Part shown: positions 1,551 to 44,710 of the stretch, piece by piece | Position numbering within the stretch: the stretch's first letter is position 1 | How the letters are laid out: every line of letters starts with the position of its first letter | Assembly (NCBI GenBank): GCA_965231065.1 | Contig: OZ246410.1 | Location: forward strand, 193,473 to 257,472 | Direction of reading: 5' to 3' | Origin: an uncultured Methanosarcinales archaeon | GTDB lineage: Archaea; Nanobdellota; Nanobdellia; Woesearchaeales; UBA10107 | Length of the DNA stretch: 64,000 nt | Notes under the pieces: generated by a model | What the model was told of the DNA's origin: nothing | Databases searched by the model: none | What the model saw: the letters and a program-made list of their open reading frames with translations, nothing else | Made by a program: the position numbers and the translations under genes

Positions 1551-1649
1551 AAATGGTTATTAGATGATTCTTTAAGAAACGGCTTTGACCACAAACCCAC
1601 CAAAAACACGCATAAAAAGTATTTAAACAGAGACTTCATATGAGTTAAT

Positions 1650-1979
1650 ATGTGCATAAAACAGCTCAAGGAAGTCTATAAAAGAGACATCTATAACGAA
1701 AAAAACGTCCATATTCGTGAAAGACATGAAGATAACGTGAAGAAACAAATGGATGTCATTCTTGGCGTCTTATTGGCAGGAGGGTTTACCACTTTTGCTA
1801 AGACCCTAATTAGTTTATTAATATTTTCTTCATTGACAATCTTCCTTCTTGTCGTCTATCTATTCATTACAAACACATATCTCAAAGAGTATGCACGATA
1901 TACTGATGAATTGATAAGAGGAAAAGATGATAAGAAAAAGTCAAAATCTGGATTTTTTAGAAAATTATTTTCAGTTTAA
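1650..1979 (+). CDS. Hypothetical membrane protein (two TM helices, basic C-terminus)
   Basis: 109-aa ORF with hydrophobic segments ILGVLLAGGF... and LLIFSSLTIFLLVVYLF. Confidence 0.4.
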   Translation: MCIKQLKEVYKRDIYNEKNVHIRERHEDNVKKQMDVILGVLLAGGFTTFAKTLISLLIFSSLTIFLLVVYLFITNTYLKEYARYTDELIRGKDDKKKSKSGFFRKLFSV

Positions 1980-2202
1980 CGGTCGTATATTCTCTCCCAT
2001 TATGTTCACTCTTCTTATGATGAATCAGTTCAATAAACCCAAAATAAGCCAGTTCTTCAAGCTGTGTCTTGATTGTCAGATTGTTAGTTCCTGTCTTGGT
2101 CTCTAACTCACGTATACTCAGTTCGCCCTTCCTTAACAGTTCCATAATCTCCTTTTTGATGTCTAGGGCTTTTCTCCGTGCCATGCCACTAATTAATCGC
2201 AA
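1957..2202 (-). CDS. Small winged-helix DNA-binding protein (ArsR/PadR-like size class)
   Basis: 81 aa; helix-turn-helix-like segment LRKGELSIRELETKTGTNNLTIKTQLEEL followed by a beta-wing; a typical small archaeal wHTH. Confidence 0.4.
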   Translation of the reverse strand: MRLISGMARRKALDIKKEIMELLRKGELSIRELETKTGTNNLTIKTQLEELAYFGFIELIHHKKSEHNGREYTTVKLKIIF

Positions 2203-2240
2203 TATTTATATATGACAATGCCACGAATTGATAGCATGAA

Positions 2241-3119
2241 ATGGAGAATTTTAGATTAGGGGTATCTAATTTGACACATAAAAATAAGGAAGATAATTTA
2301 TCAGCGATCAAAGACTACTCCAAAAAGTTCTTTTCAAATCATCACGCCGTCTCAATATTGATTATTGGTGTTGTTCTTGGATCACTCGTTGTCTTTGCTG
2401 TTCCTCTTCCTTATTCTGTTGAAGAAAATTATACAGCAAAAGTTCCATTTACATTTAAAGAGAACTACACGGATAAAGAACCATATTCAGCAAAGGAAGA
2501 TTACGTCGAAATAGAACCATATCAAGCACAAATTCCTTATGTTGAAAAAGAACCTTACGAGGCTACTGAGACATATTCAGAACAAGAACCATACACAGAT
2601 ACAGAATGTCATAATGAGCCATTAGGTCATAATGAAGAACAAACAGTTTGCGATGATTCGGGTTTCTGGAATGATGCACATATTTCAGTCAGAGTGAATA
2701 ATCTGGATACAAATAATGGCGGATCATTCAGCATATGGCTCGGATTCAATCTGCAAACAGGAGGTACGACGGGCGGAACATTCTCCCAATATATACAAGC
2801 AGGAAGCTCGTATACATTTAGCTACACATCGTCTGCCGATACTAATGGATGTACTTATCACATGACTTCAATACCTAGCAAAGAGATTTGTGAACAAGTC
2901 ATCAAATACAGAGATGTTCAGAAGACAAGGACAGTGACTAAATATCGAGATGTCACTAAATATAACACAGTCACTAAATATAGAAATGTCACGAAGCAAA
3001 AGGATGTAACGCTGTACAAAGATGTCACCAAACAAAGGGATACGACAGGTTACAGGGATGAACTGACGGAGAGAACGGTCACAAGATTCTCTACATTGTT
3101 CTCGAGAATGATAGAATAA
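2241..3119 (+). CDS. N-terminally TM-anchored protein with two distinct internal tandem-repeat arrays (five ~12-aa E-x-Y-x-x-x-E-P-Y repeats; C-terminal ~7-8-aa VTKYRDVTK repeats)
   Basis: TM helix AVSILIIGVVLGSLVVFAV; repeats ENYTAKVPF / ENYTDKEPY / EDYVEIEPY / IPYVEKEPY / ETYSEQEPY; C-terminal KYRDVQKTRTVTKYRDVTKYNTVTKYRNVTKQKDVTLYKDVTKQRD; repeat also visible in DNA as gtcactaaatat. Confidence 0.55.
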   Translation: MENFRLGVSNLTHKNKEDNLSAIKDYSKKFFSNHHAVSILIIGVVLGSLVVFAVPLPYSVEENYTAKVPFTFKENYTDKEPYSAKEDYVEIEPYQAQIPYVEKEPYEATETYSEQEPYTDTECHNEPLGHNEEQTVCDDSGFWNDAHISVRVNNLDTNNGGSFSIWLGFNLQTGGTTGGTFSQYIQAGSSYTFSYTSSADTNGCTYHMTSIPSKEICEQVIKYRDVQKTRTVTKYRDVTKYNTVTKYRNVTKQKDVTLYKDVTKQRDTTGYRDELTERTVTRFSTLFSRMIE

Positions 3120-3370
3120 AGCAATGCGTCTAATTTTTCGTAAATTTTAAAAAGGATGCCTCATTAATATGGTATAAAGAGGTTATGGACACTTTTATGA
3201 AAGGACATACTTTAAGAGTACATAATTCTATTCAACTACTCGCAGTAGGCAAGGAAAGCTATATAAGTAAGGTGAATTCCCAGAATTTAGATTGGGGATG
3301 GATAATATTTAATTAAGAAATTTAGACTACTTGCGACATTTATTTCCTTTTCCTTTCACAAAAAAGGAAG

Positions 3371-3445
3371 CGCGCCAGAGGGGATTTGAACCCCCGACCT
3401 TTCGGTTAGCATCCGATTGCACAATCCGGGCTATGCTACTGGCGC
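3371..3445 (-). tRNA. tRNA, 75 nt, hand-folded anticodon GCU (nominally Ser) but with only a 5-nt variable loop; isotype uncertain
   Basis: Minus-strand read GCGCCAG-UA-GCAU-AGCCCGGAUU-GUGC-A-AUCGG-AUGCUAA-CCGAA-AGGUC-GGGGG-UUCAAAU-CCCCU-CUGGCGC-G: 7-bp acceptor, 4-bp D stem, canonical T-loop UUCAAAU, G15/C48, U33, discriminator G73, no encoded CCA. Confidence 0.7.
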
Positions 3446-3466
3446 GTGATTTATTTTGAAAAAATG

Positions 3467-3557
3467 TGCCACCGCTGGGAATTGAACCCAGATCATTGAC
3501 ATGCGACTGTCTATCCAGCTTACAAGGCTGGTACTCTATCCTTTAAGCTACGGTGGC
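3467..3557 (-). tRNA. tRNA, 91 nt, anticodon UGU (Thr) by hand fold, with a 23-nt insertion at the variable-loop position (possible non-canonical intron or long extra arm)
   Basis: Minus-strand read GCCACCG-UA-GCUU-AAAGGAUA-GAGU-A-CCAGC-CUUGUAA-GCUGG-[AUAGACAGUCGCAUGUCAAUGAU]-CUGGG-UUCAAUU-CCCAG-CGGUGGC-A; perfect 5-bp anticodon stem, 7-bp acceptor, T-loop UUCAAUU. Confidence 0.7.
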
Positions 3558-3891
3558 ACAATATTTTCTTTATATGGATTTTAAATTTGGTAATTTAAAA
3601 CCCCCTTTTAGTCTTGCGACTATTTTTCACTTACTCAGTTCTTGCAAATGACCTTCGTTTGCCCTCGCTGAATCAGCGAAAAAATATATTGTTTATGTGA
3701 TACGCAGGATAATTTGTGATAAGGCAAACAGAAGGTGTTCCTTTTAGAAATCACCAAGCTGTTTAGAGTATAAACTCCAATTTTTAGGATGTATTACTCA
3801 TTTATATACCTTATGAATGTATTTTCATAGAATCTGACTATTTATTTACGTAAAATTAGAATTTTGTCGAAATAATCCCGACAGAAAATAA

Positions 3892-4086
3892 CTAATTCTT
3901 CAATTCCCAATAGAGATTATTCGTGCCTCTGCGTTTATTGATATAACCTTTCTTATAGAGGATTTGAAGATTCTTCAAAGCTCCGCCCCAGCTCATCTGA
4001 GTTCCTGTTGCGACCTCATTCGTATTGGATTCTCCTCTATTTCCAAGAAAATGGATGATTAGTTTTTGATTTCGATTAAGATTCAT
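3892..4086 (-). CDS. Small winged-HTH DNA-binding protein
   Basis: 64 aa; HTH-like NEVATGTQMSWGGALKNLQILYKKGYI followed by a basic wing; 4-nt overlap with the upstream AbrB-like gene suggests an operon. Confidence 0.4.
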   Translation of the reverse strand: MNLNRNQKLIIHFLGNRGESNTNEVATGTQMSWGGALKNLQILYKKGYINKRRGTNNLYWELKN

Positions 4087-4337
4087 TCGTTCACAATCTC
4101 CACTTCAAGTCTTTGATGATTATCTTTATCAGAATACACTCTAAACAATAATTTATTTCCTTTCTTGAGCTTCAATCGTCTAGTTATGAACTGCGGTATA
4201 CGACAGAAGAGCTGACCTCTATTCTCACCCAGGATAGCTTCTTCTTGTTCTGGATAATGACCTTCCATGATCGCTTTAATATCACTCTTTCTCTGTTCTT
4301 CGGGTACTTCTTTAATTAATTCTGTCTTTTTCACCAT
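4083..4337 (-). CDS. Small AbrB/SpoVT (swapped-hairpin)-like DNA-binding protein
   Basis: 84 aa; C-terminal segment GQLFCRIPQFITRRLKLKKGNKLLFRVY resembles the AbrB/MazE-type looped-hinge helix motif (RIP...L.L..G..L). Confidence 0.35.
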   Translation of the reverse strand: MVKKTELIKEVPEEQRKSDIKAIMEGHYPEQEEAILGENRGQLFCRIPQFITRRLKLKKGNKLLFRVYSDKDNHQRLEVEIVNE

Positions 4338-4339
4338 TG

Positions 4340-5628
4340 TTATTTATCATATGAATACTTATATTTAAATTTAACTATTTCATATGAAAAATCGGAATGT
4401 TTAAATATATATTCACATTTATCATATGAATAATGAGAAAGATAAAAGAGATCGAATTTGAGATTGAAGTCTCGAATCAGGATATGGAATTTGTTAAAAT
4501 CAGGAAGAAGATTGTCTATGACTGAAATCCAAACACTACTAGAACCAAAGAGAAAGGTCTCATTACCAAAGAAGAGAAGAACCTATCCTCAGAAGTGGCA
4601 TTTCTATTATCAAGCATCACGAACAGAAAAGCTCATGTTCTTCCGAATCATCAAGGACGCTGTCGATTATCTCGATATTGAGGCAAAATACAAGGGAACA
4701 GGCAGACCACCAGCAAATATCAAGGATATTGTGAAAGCTCTCTGTATCAAAGGCTATTGCGGTCTATCGTCATGGAGAATCGAATCTGAATTGAAATTAG
4801 CACAAACCTTTGGAATTATTAATAAGGTCTATAAGCGTTCAGCCTTGAACAATTATCTCAATAACAAATATGTAGTTGAGATTCTGAAAGAACTTCTAAA
4901 GACCATTGCAGAACCATTACAGGAGATTGAAGAGACAGTTGCCATAGATGCGACAGGAATGGCAAGTTCCTATGGGAAAAAGAGATGGGTTGAAGTAAGA
5001 TTAACTCATCGTCTCAGAAAAGACTTTGCCAAACTCCATATAATTTCAGGAGTGAAATCAAATATAATCTTTTCTGCTGATGTTACGGAAGGAACTTCAA
5101 GCGATAGTCCACATCTTAAAGAGTTGCTTGAAGAATTACGATTCAAACCAAGAGAATTTGTTGCTGATGCCGGATACATATCAAAAGACAATGTTATTGC
5201 GATATCTGACAAAGGCATCAAGCCGTTCATCATGCCAAGAAAGAACATAACAGGACAAAGAGGCGGTAGTGCATCATGGAGATACTTAATTCGTCTTTGG
5301 AAAGAAAACAAAGAAATCTTTCTCATGCACTATCACGCAAGATCAAATGTCGAAAGTACATTTAGTATGTTGAAAAGAAAGTTCGGCGACTATGTCAGAG
5401 CAAAGAATATCATCGGGCAGACTGCCGACATATTATCAAAAGTTGTCTGTTTGAATGCAGTCATCCTATCAGAAGCAATGCTAGAATATGGAATTAGGAC
5501 ACGCTTCCAAAATGATGGATTTCCTTACACCCAAGAACAGCCATATAATGAGTTTGTGGTCAAATAGAGCCTTTATGGTCAAAGCCTTAAGAAACAAAAC
5601 GTTTAAATATGGGTATCATTAAAGAGTA
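4340..5628 (+). mobile_element. Approximate extent of an IS element carrying the IS4/IS5-family transposase; ends not resolved
   Basis: Transposase ORF flanked by AT-rich non-coding sequence containing gtttaaatat motifs on both sides (4399-4408 and 5601-5610) and three tcatatgaa repeats on the left; no clean terminal inverted repeat could be defined by eye. Confidence 0.4.
4458..5567 (+). CDS. DDE transposase, IS4/IS5 (DDE_Tnp_1) superfamily
   Basis: 369 aa; IDATG (D1), VADAGY (D2) and C-terminal YHARSNVESTFSMLKRKFG (the Y-x2-R-x3-E-x6-K signature of IS4/IS5 transposases). Confidence 0.8.
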   Translation: MRLKSRIRIWNLLKSGRRLSMTEIQTLLEPKRKVSLPKKRRTYPQKWHFYYQASRTEKLMFFRIIKDAVDYLDIEAKYKGTGRPPANIKDIVKALCIKGYCGLSSWRIESELKLAQTFGIINKVYKRSALNNYLNNKYVVEILKELLKTIAEPLQEIEETVAIDATGMASSYGKKRWVEVRLTHRLRKDFAKLHIISGVKSNIIFSADVTEGTSSDSPHLKELLEELRFKPREFVADAGYISKDNVIAISDKGIKPFIMPRKNITGQRGGSASWRYLIRLWKENKEIFLMHYHARSNVESTFSMLKRKFGDYVRAKNIIGQTADILSKVVCLNAVILSEAMLEYGIRTRFQNDGFPYTQEQPYNEFVVK

Positions 5629-43192: not shown

Positions 43193-43717
43193 TTATGGTC
43201 GCTTCCAACTGATCTCGTAATAGGTCACGTCTTCTTCATCATCAACAATTCCTATGAGAAGTCTTTTTTTAGTCGAATGCGCGACTCTGTTCTTGGAAGC
43301 GAAATCATGCCAGGTCAGTATATCTGATTCATGTACCGGAAAAATAACCCACTTCGCATGATCTTCTCCCGGATTCACTCCTTTATCATACGCTCTGAAC
43401 TCTGCTCCAAACTTCAATGCGGTCTTGACAATATAGCCTCGGTCCCTCAGATCGCGATAGACGGCATATTTTGTCTCAAAGTCTTTGATATTTCTGCGTG
43501 CCTTTTTCAAATAGGTTTCGGTGCTTAGTTCTTTCTTTCCGAAACGGATGATGATGCGTTCTTTTTCAAGTAGATAGAGTGCTTCGAACAGAGAAAGTAC
43601 CACATTGGATCTCTTGATGGTTCCAAACCGTCCTTTATTGTACAGTTCCCGTGCTGCATCAGATGCTTCAGTGATGACGCCCCGCTCGAGAAACCGCGCT
43701 TCTATGGGTTTTTGCAT
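43193..43717 (-). CDS. endA: tRNA-splicing endonuclease catalytic subunit (EndA), short single-domain type
   Basis: 174 aa; catalytic region YLKKARRNIKDFETKYAVYRDLRDRGYIVKTALKFGAEFRAYDKG...HAKWVIFPV with the conserved Tyr/His/Lys triad. Confidence 0.85.
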   Translation of the reverse strand: MQKPIEARFLERGVITEASDAARELYNKGRFGTIKRSNVVLSLFEALYLLEKERIIIRFGKKELSTETYLKKARRNIKDFETKYAVYRDLRDRGYIVKTALKFGAEFRAYDKGVNPGEDHAKWVIFPVHESDILTWHDFASKNRVAHSTKKRLLIGIVDDEEDVTYYEISWKRP

Positions 43718-43810: not shown

Positions 43811-44710
43811 ATGGATGTTGTTATTTTAGGAACCTCTTCAATGGTTCCCACCAAAGAACGGAATCCAGTCAGTGTTTTCATTAGTTACAAGGGTGACGGC
43901 ATTCTTATCGATTGTGCTGAAGGCTCACAGAAGCAGATGAATATCGCAGGCATCTCCCGATCAAAGGTCAACAAGATCTTAATCAGTCACTGGCATGGCG
44001 ATCATATTGCCGGATTGATTGGTTTATTGCAGACAATCGGTAACAAGGAGCAGCGGCCTACCATCGAAGTGTATGGTCCTGTCGGCACAAAGAATTACTT
44101 TAAACACTTATTGCAGAGTTGTTACTTTGATGTCCGTATCGATCTTAAAATCAAGGAACTCAATCCGAAGAAAGTCGATAAGTTCTTTGAGAATGATGAC
44201 TATGAATTGTATGCAACCGCTTTGGAACACTCAGTCCCTTGTATTGGATATAGTTTTGTAGAAAAATCACGTAGAAATATCGATGTCTCGTATTTGAAGA
44301 AGCACAAGATCAAGGAAGGGCCTCATCTTGAGCAATTGAAGCAAGGCAAAGATATTGTCGTTGAAGGAAAGAAAATAAAAGCAAAGGATGCAACGTATTT
44401 AGTTCCTGGCAAGAAGGTATCGTATGTCATGGATACGATATATACAACAAATGCGGTGAAACTGGCGAAAGACGCTGATCTGCTTTTGTGCGAATCAACC
44501 TATCACAGTGGTCTTCAGGACAAGGCAGATGAGTACAAACACATGACAGCTACCCAAGCAGCGCAGATTGCTTCACAGGCAAACGTGAAACAACTCGTTA
44601 TAACTCATTTTTCTCAGAGATATAAAGAAGTTTCGGGTTTGCTCGAGGAAGCAAAGATGATTTTCCCGAATACACGTGATGCTTTTGATCTTATGAAGAT
44701 CACGTTGTAA
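43811..44710 (+). CDS. rnz: Ribonuclease Z (tRNA 3-prime endonuclease, metallo-beta-lactamase fold)
   Basis: 299 aa; HxHxDH motif ISHWHGDHIAG and downstream His/Asp ligands (TATALEHS, ITHFSQRY). Confidence 0.85.
   Translation: MDVVILGTSSMVPTKERNPVSVFISYKGDGILIDCAEGSQKQMNIAGISRSKVNKILISHWHGDHIAGLIGLLQTIGNKEQRPTIEVYGPVGTKNYFKHLLQSCYFDVRIDLKIKELNPKKVDKFFENDDYELYATALEHSVPCIGYSFVEKSRRNIDVSYLKKHKIKEGPHLEQLKQGKDIVVEGKKIKAKDATYLVPGKKVSYVMDTIYTTNAVKLAKDADLLLCESTYHSGLQDKADEYKHMTATQAAQIASQANVKQLVITHFSQRYKEVSGLLEEAKMIFPNTRDAFDLMKITL

Follow-up and report, generated by a model that had tools for sequence, protein, structure and literature searches.

We have analysed a 64,000-nucleotide stretch of DNA (hereafter the window; contig OZ246410.1 of assembly GCA_965231065.1) from a DPANN archaeon, in which a tRNA gene with the anticodon UGU, here termed tRNA(UGU), occupies positions 3467..3557 on the minus strand. 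The gene is 91 nt long and does not encode the 3'-terminal CCA; it has a threonine-type class-I body, an A at position 73, and 23 nt between its anticodon and T stems. Another tRNA gene, with the anticodon GCU (Ser AGY), lies on the same strand at 3371..3445, and both are contained in a unit transposon of 4,006 bp (1581..5586), recognized by its terminal inverted repeats (TIRs), a target-site duplication (TSD) and empty sites, which comprises an IS4-family DDE transposase and passenger genes. The window itself is archaeal, encoding an MCM protein with an archaeal winged helix and the splicing endonuclease EndA, and, among named homologues, those closest to its PP-loop ATPase carry the annotation Candidatus Nanoarchaeia, Nanoarchaeota or Woesearchaeota.

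The tRNA(UGU) gene and its variable region

ARAGORN called a tRNA-Thr(tgt) at 3466-3557(-), and the Rfam model RF00005 aligned to the gene over its full length (model positions 1-71, from 3557 to 3467) with 63.3 bits (E=2e-11; gathering score 29), which is more than the 57.6 bits obtained with the same model for the host's ordinary tRNA-Trp in the window. In the RF00005 alignment, 20-23 extra nucleotides are treated as inserted within the variable region. The sequence of the transcript is GCCACCG-UA-GCUU-AAAGGAUA-GAGU-A-CCAGC-CUUGUAA-GCUGG-[AUAGACAGUCGCAUGUCAAUGAU]-CUGGG-UUCAAUU-CCCAG-CGGUGGC-A, with an acceptor stem of 7 bp, a D stem of 4 bp that includes two G-U pairs, and a perfect anticodon stem closing the loop CUUGUAA, in which ARAGORN and Rfam place the anticodon UGU at 3522..3524 (minus strand). 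All features that define the RF00005 family are present, i.e. the 7-bp acceptor stem, the D, anticodon and T arms, U8, G18G19, U33 and the GUUC of the T loop, and the positions engaged in tertiary contacts are kept (U8, A14, G18G19, A21, U33, G53U54U55C56 and A58). The minimum free energy (MFE) fold of the 91-mer is a cloverleaf plus a GACA/UGUC hairpin, with -34 kcal/mol and z = -3.25, a value matched by 0/200 shuffles. A preliminary description of this locus had placed a UGU tRNA at 3467-3557 and folded it by hand; ARAGORN and RF00005 bear out the gene, for which the strand, not stated there, is minus, and the hand-drawn acceptor, D and anticodon stems with the loop CUUGUAA are the same as in the MFE cloverleaf.

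The 23-nt variable region AUAGACAGUCGCAUGUCAAUGAU (3492..3514, minus strand), as read from the sequence and the MFE structure, can be divided into AU, corresponding to positions 44-45, an 18-nt arm AGACAGUCGCAUGUCAAU (3495-3512), and GAU, corresponding to positions 46-48. Since these flanks represent a normal 44-45 and 46-48, with G46 in place and U48 pairing with A15 (the Levitt pair), the insert falls at 45/46, the usual site of the class II arm. The hairpin, at 3498-3511, has a 4-bp GACA/UGUC stem and the 6-nt loop GUCGCA, and including positions 44-45 would allow a stem of 7 bp (AUAGACA/UGUCAAU) that has one A.A mismatch. Both the 23 nt between the anticodon and T stems and this hairpin had been seen before, and ARAGORN, Rfam and the MFE fold agree with them. 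The 18-mer AGACAGUCGCAUGUCAAU has no further copy in the window, so that a repeat or a miniature inverted-repeat transposable element is not borne out, and inspection of the insert by eye for a K-turn or L7Ae-type motif found no fitting tandem sheared G.A arrangement.

The insert had initially been read either as a non-canonical intron or as an aberrant class-II-like arm, and an ARAGORN run had been suggested as a check; with its intron search on, this program called the Thr(tgt) tRNA and reported no intron in it. We coded the bulge-helix-bulge (BHB) rule such that each strand, read 5' to 3', runs from an outer helix through a 4-nt central helix and a 3-nt bulge, in which the cut follows the second nucleotide, to the other helix, and scored every cut-site pair in tRNA(UGU) together with 15-nt flanks, and then only those excisions that leave a variable loop of 4-5 nt. 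Archaeal tRNA-Thr(UGU) genes with ordinary 37/38 introns (L010, L061, L066, L071 and L080) served as controls; in these the scan found a perfect 4-bp central helix (H=4) and an outer helix of 5-6 bp (h1), exactly at 37/38. Among all cut-site pairs in tRNA(UGU) and its flanks, no candidate with a perfect central helix (H=4) leaves a tRNA, and the best excision that leaves a 4-5-nt variable loop reaches only H=3 of 4, with h1=1 and h2=0. Likewise, the relaxed motifs hBH, HBh' and BHL gave no instance in this gene whose excision would produce a normal tRNA. A BHB-like fold of AUAG with CAAU (with an A.A mismatch and the bulges ACA and GAU, cut after C and A, respectively) was rejected, as it requires the anticodon and T stems both to melt and leaves a loop of 7 nt, and so was a BHL reading of the GACA/UGUC hairpin, which removes just 10 nt and leaves 13. 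Thus, in a scan that recovers the controls, no BHB or relaxed geometry removes the insert and leaves a loop of 4-5 nt, and the intron reading is not supported. The class-II-like arm, which fits the position of the insert at 45/46 and the MFE structure of a cloverleaf with an additional arm, is favoured.

The IS4-family transposon and its cargo

The ends of the transposon are marked by 15-bp TIRs of the form GGCTTTGACCAYAAA: GGCTTTGACCACAAA at 1581..1595 on the plus strand, and GGCTTTGACCATAAA at 5572..5586 on the minus strand, the latter 14/15 identical to the former. These are just the two matches found in the 64 kb, with 0 expected by chance; a third, partial copy of the repeat lies at 5549-5564. 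The TIRs are bordered by a 9-bp TSD, TTAAGAAAC, with its left copy at 1572..1580 and its right copy at 5587..5595 (both plus strand). The transposase (369 aa; 4458..5567, plus strand) is an IS4-like DDE enzyme with the PF01609 domain (Pfam 1.1e-19); it has 532 homologues, of which the nearest are 53-55% identical and one is named 'Transposase IS4-like' by its source. A PF01609 transposase, TIRs with a TSD, and evidence of mobility, all of which are features of the IS4 family, are therefore found together in this element. TIRs with a 9-bp duplication also occur in IS10/IS50-type members of IS4. With its DDE_Tnp_1 transposase, 15-bp TIRs, 9-bp duplication and passenger genes between the ends, the element resembles the IS4 'transporter IS' or unit transposons, differing from them in having two structurally atypical tRNA genes among its passengers. 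Viruses are well known to carry accessory tRNA genes, and the element shares this kind of cargo with tRNA-carrying viruses and mobile elements; a limited literature search yielded no account of an archaeal IS-type transposon with tRNAs as cargo.

The mobility of the element is evident from sites that lack it and from a second insertion. In four relatives, whose PP-loop protein is 68-72% identical to that of the window, the gene order is MCM, TBP, DUF192, tRNA-Trp, an Ig-like protein of ~835 aa, (a small membrane ORF,) the PP-loop ATPase and RNase P p30; the element and both cargo tRNAs are absent from this syntenic site, where tRNA-Trp is the only tRNA. The corresponding genes of the window, Ig-like (from 5629) and PP-loop (to 1086), are separated by ~4.5 kb; outside the left end of the element is the open reading frame (ORF) at 1171-1512, which represents the conserved small membrane gene (56% identity to the counterpart in L131). 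Contigs from further sequencing runs of the same study include four with the exact transposase. Three of them (L133, L135 and L136) have the same insertion with the identical duplication. The remaining one, L134 (1-6835, Logan SRR8931230), a variant or second copy of the element from the same community, is 100% identical to window positions 3079-5586, with both tRNAs included, and its homology ends at the last base of the right TIR, where the flank is CGCAAAATC instead of TTAAGAAAC. To the left of 3079 it carries a different cargo, the junction being within the last 13 codons of a membrane-protein gene. The tRNAs are identical in all copies of the element, which is recently active. Because it resides on a transposon with empty sites in relatives and a second insertion context, tRNA(UGU) is an accessory mobile gene and not the housekeeping tRNA-Thr of the host. 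The housekeeping tRNA-Thr(UGU), with U73 and usually a 37/38 intron, adjoins, in conserved synteny, the gene for ribosomal protein S3Ae in 11 DPANN loci (Woesearchaeial, Pacearchaeial and Nanoarchaeial: L024, L031, L061, L066, L071, L075, L079, L080, L104, L108 and L111).

Upstream of the tRNA genes and on the same strand (minus), the element contains an ORFan of 84 aa (4083-4337), for which a homology search gave no homologue, and an ORF of 64 aa (3892-4086) with a weak winged-helix/MarR-like match. The remaining cargo includes a membrane ORF of 109 aa (1650-1979, plus strand), an 81-aa ORF with a weak likeness to winged-helix proteins (1957-2202, minus strand) and a Thr-rich repeat protein of 292 aa (2241-3119, plus strand); none of the cargo genes was recognised as encoding a nuclease or toxin. 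Within the 292-aa ORF, the segment 2460-3002 (plus strand) contains two sets of in-frame tandem DNA repeats, with a spacing of 36/72 nt at 2460-2598 and a period of 18 nt at 2931-3002, which encode peptide repeats of the EPY and TKYRDV types; the protein is probably variable and surface-exposed. The GC content is 31-39% inside the element vs 41-44% outside, and the element has inserted immediately before the promoter box of the gene for the Ig-like surface protein. Three related transposases (52-54% identical) have no tRNAs nearby, and the small ORFs that flank them are not homologous to the cargo described here.

Identity features, codon use and comparable tRNAs

The body of tRNA(UGU) is of the Thr type: it starts with GCC and has GUAGCU at positions 7-12, as do 104 of the 106 archaeal tRNA(UGU) genes sampled. 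Together with the anticodon UGU, the pairs G1-C72, C2-G71 and C3-G70 and the segment G7-U12 (GUAGCU) make up the archaeal tRNA-Thr(UGU) pattern, which is found here with the start GCCACCGUAGCU, and the acceptor stem GCCACCG is identical in the Thr tRNAs of L020, L045, L092, L094 and L121. The D arm, with a 4-bp stem and an 8-nt loop, is of class I and unlike that of the true Leu tRNAs in L071 and L116. The gene deviates in three respects, namely the arm, A15-U48 instead of G15-C48, and A73; in place of the 4-5-nt variable loop expected of an archaeal class-I tRNA-Thr(UGU) there are 23 nt. As in class II tRNAs, positions 45 and 46 are separated in the MFE fold by a paired arm of 10 nt or more (18 nt, with a 4-bp stem and a 6-nt loop). 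The class II anticodons (Leu, Ser or Tyr) and the class II D arm, with a 3-bp stem or a long loop, are both missing from tRNA(UGU).

It has been reported that the identity of tRNA-Thr is determined by acceptor-stem pairs and the anticodon (PMC9976931). Since the anticodon and the pairs G1-C72, C2-G71 and C3-G70 are features that threonyl-tRNA synthetase (ThrRS) normally reads, charging by ThrRS is the most economical expectation, and these features suggest that tRNA(UGU) most likely accepts threonine, although this assignment is not secure. The archaeal Leu identity, in turn, relies in Haloferax volcanii on A73 and a long arm with specific loop bases (PMC9976931); the loop GUCGCA lacks the A47c-G47d motif reported for the H. 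volcanii leucyl-tRNA synthetase (LeuRS).

The partner tRNA(GCU), which starts 21 nt downstream of tRNA(UGU), was called by ARAGORN and scores 54.6 bits with Rfam; it has a class-I shape and a variable loop of 5 nt. It carries the complete Arg identity set of A20, C35, U36 and G73 (according to PMC9976931), and its body is of the Arg type, not of the Ser type. Its nearest neighbours are DPANN tRNA-Arg(CCU), and its acceptor stem GCGCCAG is nearly the same as that of a Woesearchaeotal tRNA-Arg(CCU), GCGCCTG, which also has G73. It thus looks like an anticodon-shifted Arg-type tRNA, which would misread AGY codons if charged with Arg, and both cargo tRNAs are atypical for their anticodons.

Promoter and terminator assignments were made by reading the sequence, as the bacterial-type promoter and terminator scan is not applicable to archaea. 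A candidate archaeal promoter box, GTTTTAAATTA (3591..3601, minus strand), precedes the 5' end of tRNA(UGU) by ~34 nt; similar boxes are present in front of the host tRNA-Trp (GTTTTAAATAA) and also of the transposase and Ig-like genes (GTTTAAATAT). Directly after the 3' end of tRNA(UGU) there is a T6 run (3459..3464, minus strand), likely a (leaky) archaeal terminator, and another T6 run follows tRNA(GCU) at 3360-3365 (minus strand).

We aligned the transposase of the element and the PP-loop protein of the host each with 119 homologues and inspected the strongly conserved columns. At such columns of the transposase and the host protein, ACA codons align with Thr, at 103/119 and 105/118 in the transposase, and AGT codons with Ser, at 107/119 and 107/118, by which recoding of the element's genes is rejected. 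As these genes use the standard code, charging of the cargo tRNAs with Leu or Arg would result in missense. ACA is the commonest Thr codon of the host, where it makes up 42% of Thr codons (23 per 1000 codons); its frequency in the 292-aa cargo protein is 62 per 1000 codons, 2.7-fold over the host, while AGY is not enriched.

When 185,579 species genomes were scanned for UGU tRNAs that carry additional nucleotides 3' of the anticodon loop, the matches listed were mostly canonical 37/38 introns with A as their first base. Among the matches listed, at least 6 or so are true variable-region inserts in UGU tRNAs, none of them related to tRNA(UGU) of the window; they include genes from an Asgard archaeon (L029), a cyanobacterium (L067), a bacterium of the Candidate Phyla Radiation (L032), and Thiotrichales and Bacillota metagenome-assembled genomes (MAGs; L099 and L109). 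The Asgard gene (L029, 611-715; Candidatus Borrarchaeum weybense) is a tRNA-Thr(UGU) with a 35-nt variable-region insert of HBh'-like geometry (central helix 3/4, inner helix 5 bp), plausibly a genuine intron of the 45/46 type, in contrast to the insert studied here. The tRNA-Thr(UGU) of the cyanobacterium (L067, 5177-5267; Coleofasciculaceae) has A73 and a 21-nt variable region, A-GUC-CGUCGAA-GAC-AUUGGUC, with a layout much like that of the window's insert. In two Balneolales MAGs (L009, 2474-2538, and L040, 1347-1410), an ~18-nt palindrome or hairpin (e.g. TCCCGACAGCTGTCGGGA) takes the place of the variable loop and the 3' half of the anticodon stem in a tRNA(UGU)-like gene, and therefore the anticodon stem cannot close as usual. 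Five viral scans gave one unrelated phage tRNA only: a UGU tRNA on an IMG/VR phage contig with 8 tRNAs (L125, 1954-2039), which has the same anticodon arm sequence as in the window, a 3-bp D stem of class II type and a 17-nt variable region, and may be a class-II body with a Thr anticodon. A metagenome scan with the D-arm pattern yielded 2 chance matches in non-tRNA sequence and no relative of tRNA(UGU), and BLAST searches of phages and plasmids had no matches.

The preliminary description held that a long arm would be unprecedented for a Thr-type anticodon, which was overstated in view of the nev-tRNAs (PMC3333845), the allo-tRNAs (PMC5389517) and the UGU cases L029, L032, L067, L099, L109 and L125. 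A class-II shape with a class-I anticodon is rare but not unprecedented. The nematode nev-tRNAs are derived from tRNA-Leu, have A73, keep the variable arm (V-arm) in the mature RNA and are leucylated irrespective of their anticodon (PMC3333845); the bacterial allo-tRNAs are class-II-shaped, have other anticodons and Ser identity, and combine acceptor and T stems of 8/4 or 9/3 bp (PMC5389517). Both groups share with tRNA(UGU) the class II shape with a class-I anticodon and a scattered, lineage-specific occurrence, and the nev-tRNAs share A73 as well. However, the nev-tRNAs are eukaryotic and have a Leu body with a changed anticodon, whereas tRNA(UGU) is archaeal and transposon-borne and has a Thr-like body, not a Leu- or Ser-derived one, that gained an arm; unlike the allo-tRNAs, it has the normal 7/5 acceptor and T stems. 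With the regular class II tRNAs (Leu, Ser, bacterial Tyr and Sec) it has in common a stem-loop between 45 and 46, a variable region of >10 nt and a 7/5 cloverleaf, but it differs from them in its Thr anticodon, class-I D arm, archaeal tRNA-Thr body, and short AU-rich 4-bp arm with many unpaired 3' nucleotides. A Thr-type body with a gained arm in an archaeon, and its carriage on an IS-type transposon together with a second deviant tRNA, appear to be new.

Interpretation and alternative explanations

We propose, with a probability of roughly 0.55, that tRNA(UGU) is an accessory, mobile and probably Thr-accepting tRNA that keeps its arm and travels as a passenger of an IS4-family transposon in a DPANN archaeon. 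An 18-nt hairpin would have been added between positions 45 and 46 of a Thr-type UGU tRNA, and most likely remain unspliced. Transcription would start at a host-like promoter of the gene itself and might include tRNA(GCU), and the precursor would be trimmed by RNase P and RNase Z before addition of CCA. The predicted mature product is a class-II-shaped tRNA of ~94 nt, with the arm projecting from the elbow region, which would add decoding capacity for ACA, the favoured Thr codon of the host and one that is enriched in the element's Thr-rich protein. The gene with its fold, the position of the insert, the absence of splice-site geometry, the transposon and the standard decoding of ACA and AGY are shown by the analysis; that the gene is transcribed, charged with Thr and of any benefit, and that the arm persists in the mature RNA, we infer. 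A retained arm would be compatible with translation, because class II tRNAs have arms, the V-arms of nev-tRNAs stay in the mature RNA (PMC3333845), and aptamer-tagged tRNAs have been described (PMC7590224).

Several observations weigh against this proposal. With 4 bp and -4 kcal/mol on its own, the AU-rich arm is weak and has 5-6 unpaired nucleotides 3' of the stem, unlike typical class II arms, and our searches found no orthologue with a diverged arm, so that the hairpin is without support from covariation. A73 contrasts with U73 in 106/106 archaeal tRNA(UGU) genes sampled; as U73 contributes to Thr identity as a determinant in H. volcanii but not in Aeropyrum pernix (PMC9976931), the host ThrRS may charge the A73-bearing tRNA poorly. 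Moreover, A73, A15-U48 and the long arm are Leu-like features, the mis-wired-looking tRNA(GCU) raises the chance that both tRNAs are non-functional or not engaged in ordinary decoding, and DPANN EndAs may have broad specificity (PMC5829648).

Among the alternative explanations, that of a neutral or decaying passenger is the most serious, though in our view rather unlikely; here a tRNA acquired horizontally, with little expression, little charging or no use at all, would have received the hairpin by accident. It would agree with the findings that tRNA(UGU) is not the host's syntenic tRNA and is absent from relatives, that its A73 is atypical for archaeal Thr, that the neighbouring tRNA(GCU) is also aberrant, that the cargo around them consists of ORFans, and that viral, phage, plasmid and metagenome searches gave no relative of either tRNA; nev-tRNAs are a case of such genes at very low expression (PMC3333845). 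Evidence against decay is that the gene outscores the host tRNA-Trp, has intact stems and all tertiary positions, shows a 15-48 pair that co-varied to A-U, and is accompanied by a promoter-like box and terminator runs. The identity of the tRNAs in two element variants points in the same direction, even if recent spread may suffice to account for it. It is unlikely that the arm instead changes the identity of the tRNA, either towards LeuRS (via A73, A15-U48 and the arm) or towards seryl-tRNA synthetase (SerRS; via the arm), such that a wrong amino acid is inserted at ACA, or that the product is a non-decoding tRNA-like RNA, for instance a processing signal or a decoy for tRNA-targeting nucleases. 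In H. volcanii, A73 and a long variable arm are what defines Leu identity (PMC9976931), nev-tRNAs with A73 and a V-arm are leucylated whatever their anticodon (PMC3333845), the partner tRNA(GCU) with its full Arg set would mistranslate too, and a mobile pair would fit a selfish or conflict-related function. On the other hand, the D arm is of the class-I/Thr type rather than the Leu or Ser type, the loop GUCGCA is without A47c-G47d, the G73 needed by SerRS is absent, and the cargo has no recognised nuclease or toxin gene. Furthermore, ACA and AGT stand at conserved Thr and Ser columns, so that mischarging would harm the element's own products.

Removal of the insert as a small non-canonical intron (at 43/44, 44/45 or 45/46), cut by the archaeal splicing endonuclease via a very relaxed motif to give a normal tRNA-Thr of 73 nt, we regard as quite unlikely. 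Excision of 18 nt at any of the three positions would leave the loop AUGAU, with G46 present and U48 pairing with A15; many non-canonical intron positions are known in archaea, and DPANN EndAs with an L3 loop correlate with disrupted tRNA genes whatever their subunit type (PMC5829648, PMC4033280). The host genome has an EndA, whose closest solved relatives include the catalytic subunits of Methanopyrus kandleri and Nanoarchaeum equitans, and the variable-region insert of the Asgard tRNA-Thr(UGU) has HBh'-like geometry. Like archaeal introns with relaxed BHB motifs (hBH, HBh' or BHL, processed by (alpha-beta)2, epsilon2 or L3-loop EndAs), the insert is short (18 nt), lies outside the anticodon loop and occurs in a DPANN host with an EndA gene. 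Unlike them, it is a self-contained hairpin and offers no 4-bp central helix with 3-nt bulges at cut sites that would restore the tRNA: the three excisions to AUGAU give a central helix of at most 3 of 4 pairs and flanking helices of 0-2, the sole BHB-like fold melts two stems and leaves 7 nt, the BHL reading leaves 13, the controls pass the same test, and the MFE fold does not present splice sites. A decidedly speculative possibility, to which we assign the lowest likelihood, is that the transposon carries a tRNA pair in which identity and anticodon are deliberately mismatched, serving regulated mistranslation (ACA as Leu, AGY as Arg) or acting as decoys or antidotes in a conflict over tRNA-targeting systems; if true, this would be the first mobile 'mistranslation cassette' in archaea.

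If, as we favour, the arm is retained and the tRNA is charged with Thr, a class-I tRNA can gain a class-II-type arm in nature and still work, which would bear on the origin of the two tRNA classes and on how synthetases tolerate or read the arm. The presence of two deviant tRNAs on a simple cut-and-paste transposon of a genome-reduced DPANN archaeon represents a route for the horizontal spread of decoding capacity, or of mis-decoding. With respect to annotation, a long variable region in an archaeal tRNA should not be presumed to be an intron, and assessments of the completeness of DPANN tRNA sets should not take genes such as these for the tRNA-Thr or tRNA-Ser of the host.

The EndA gene of the window (174 aa; 43193-43717, minus strand) had been taken to encode a short single-domain protein, which is wrong, as both the N-terminal domain PF02778 and the catalytic domain PF01974 are present. 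The solved structures closest to it are those of the M. kandleri enzyme, the catalytic subunit of N. equitans and the alpha4 enzyme of Methanocaldococcus jannaschii. The EndA type had also been considered relevant to which BHB variants can be cleaved; the subunit type of DPANN EndAs does not, however, settle their specificity, since alpha4 enzymes with an 'L3' loop accompany disrupted tRNA genes (PMC5829648). For this reason EndA cannot exclude splicing of tRNA(UGU), and it is the geometry of the substrate that argues against it. Divergently adjoining EndA is a gene for a metallo-beta-lactamase-fold protein of 299 aa (Lactamase_B_2; 43811-44710, plus strand), possibly RNase Z, beyond which Hjc and SecY are found in Logan contigs; EndA and the Lactamase_B_2 gene may constitute a small tRNA-processing gene pair.

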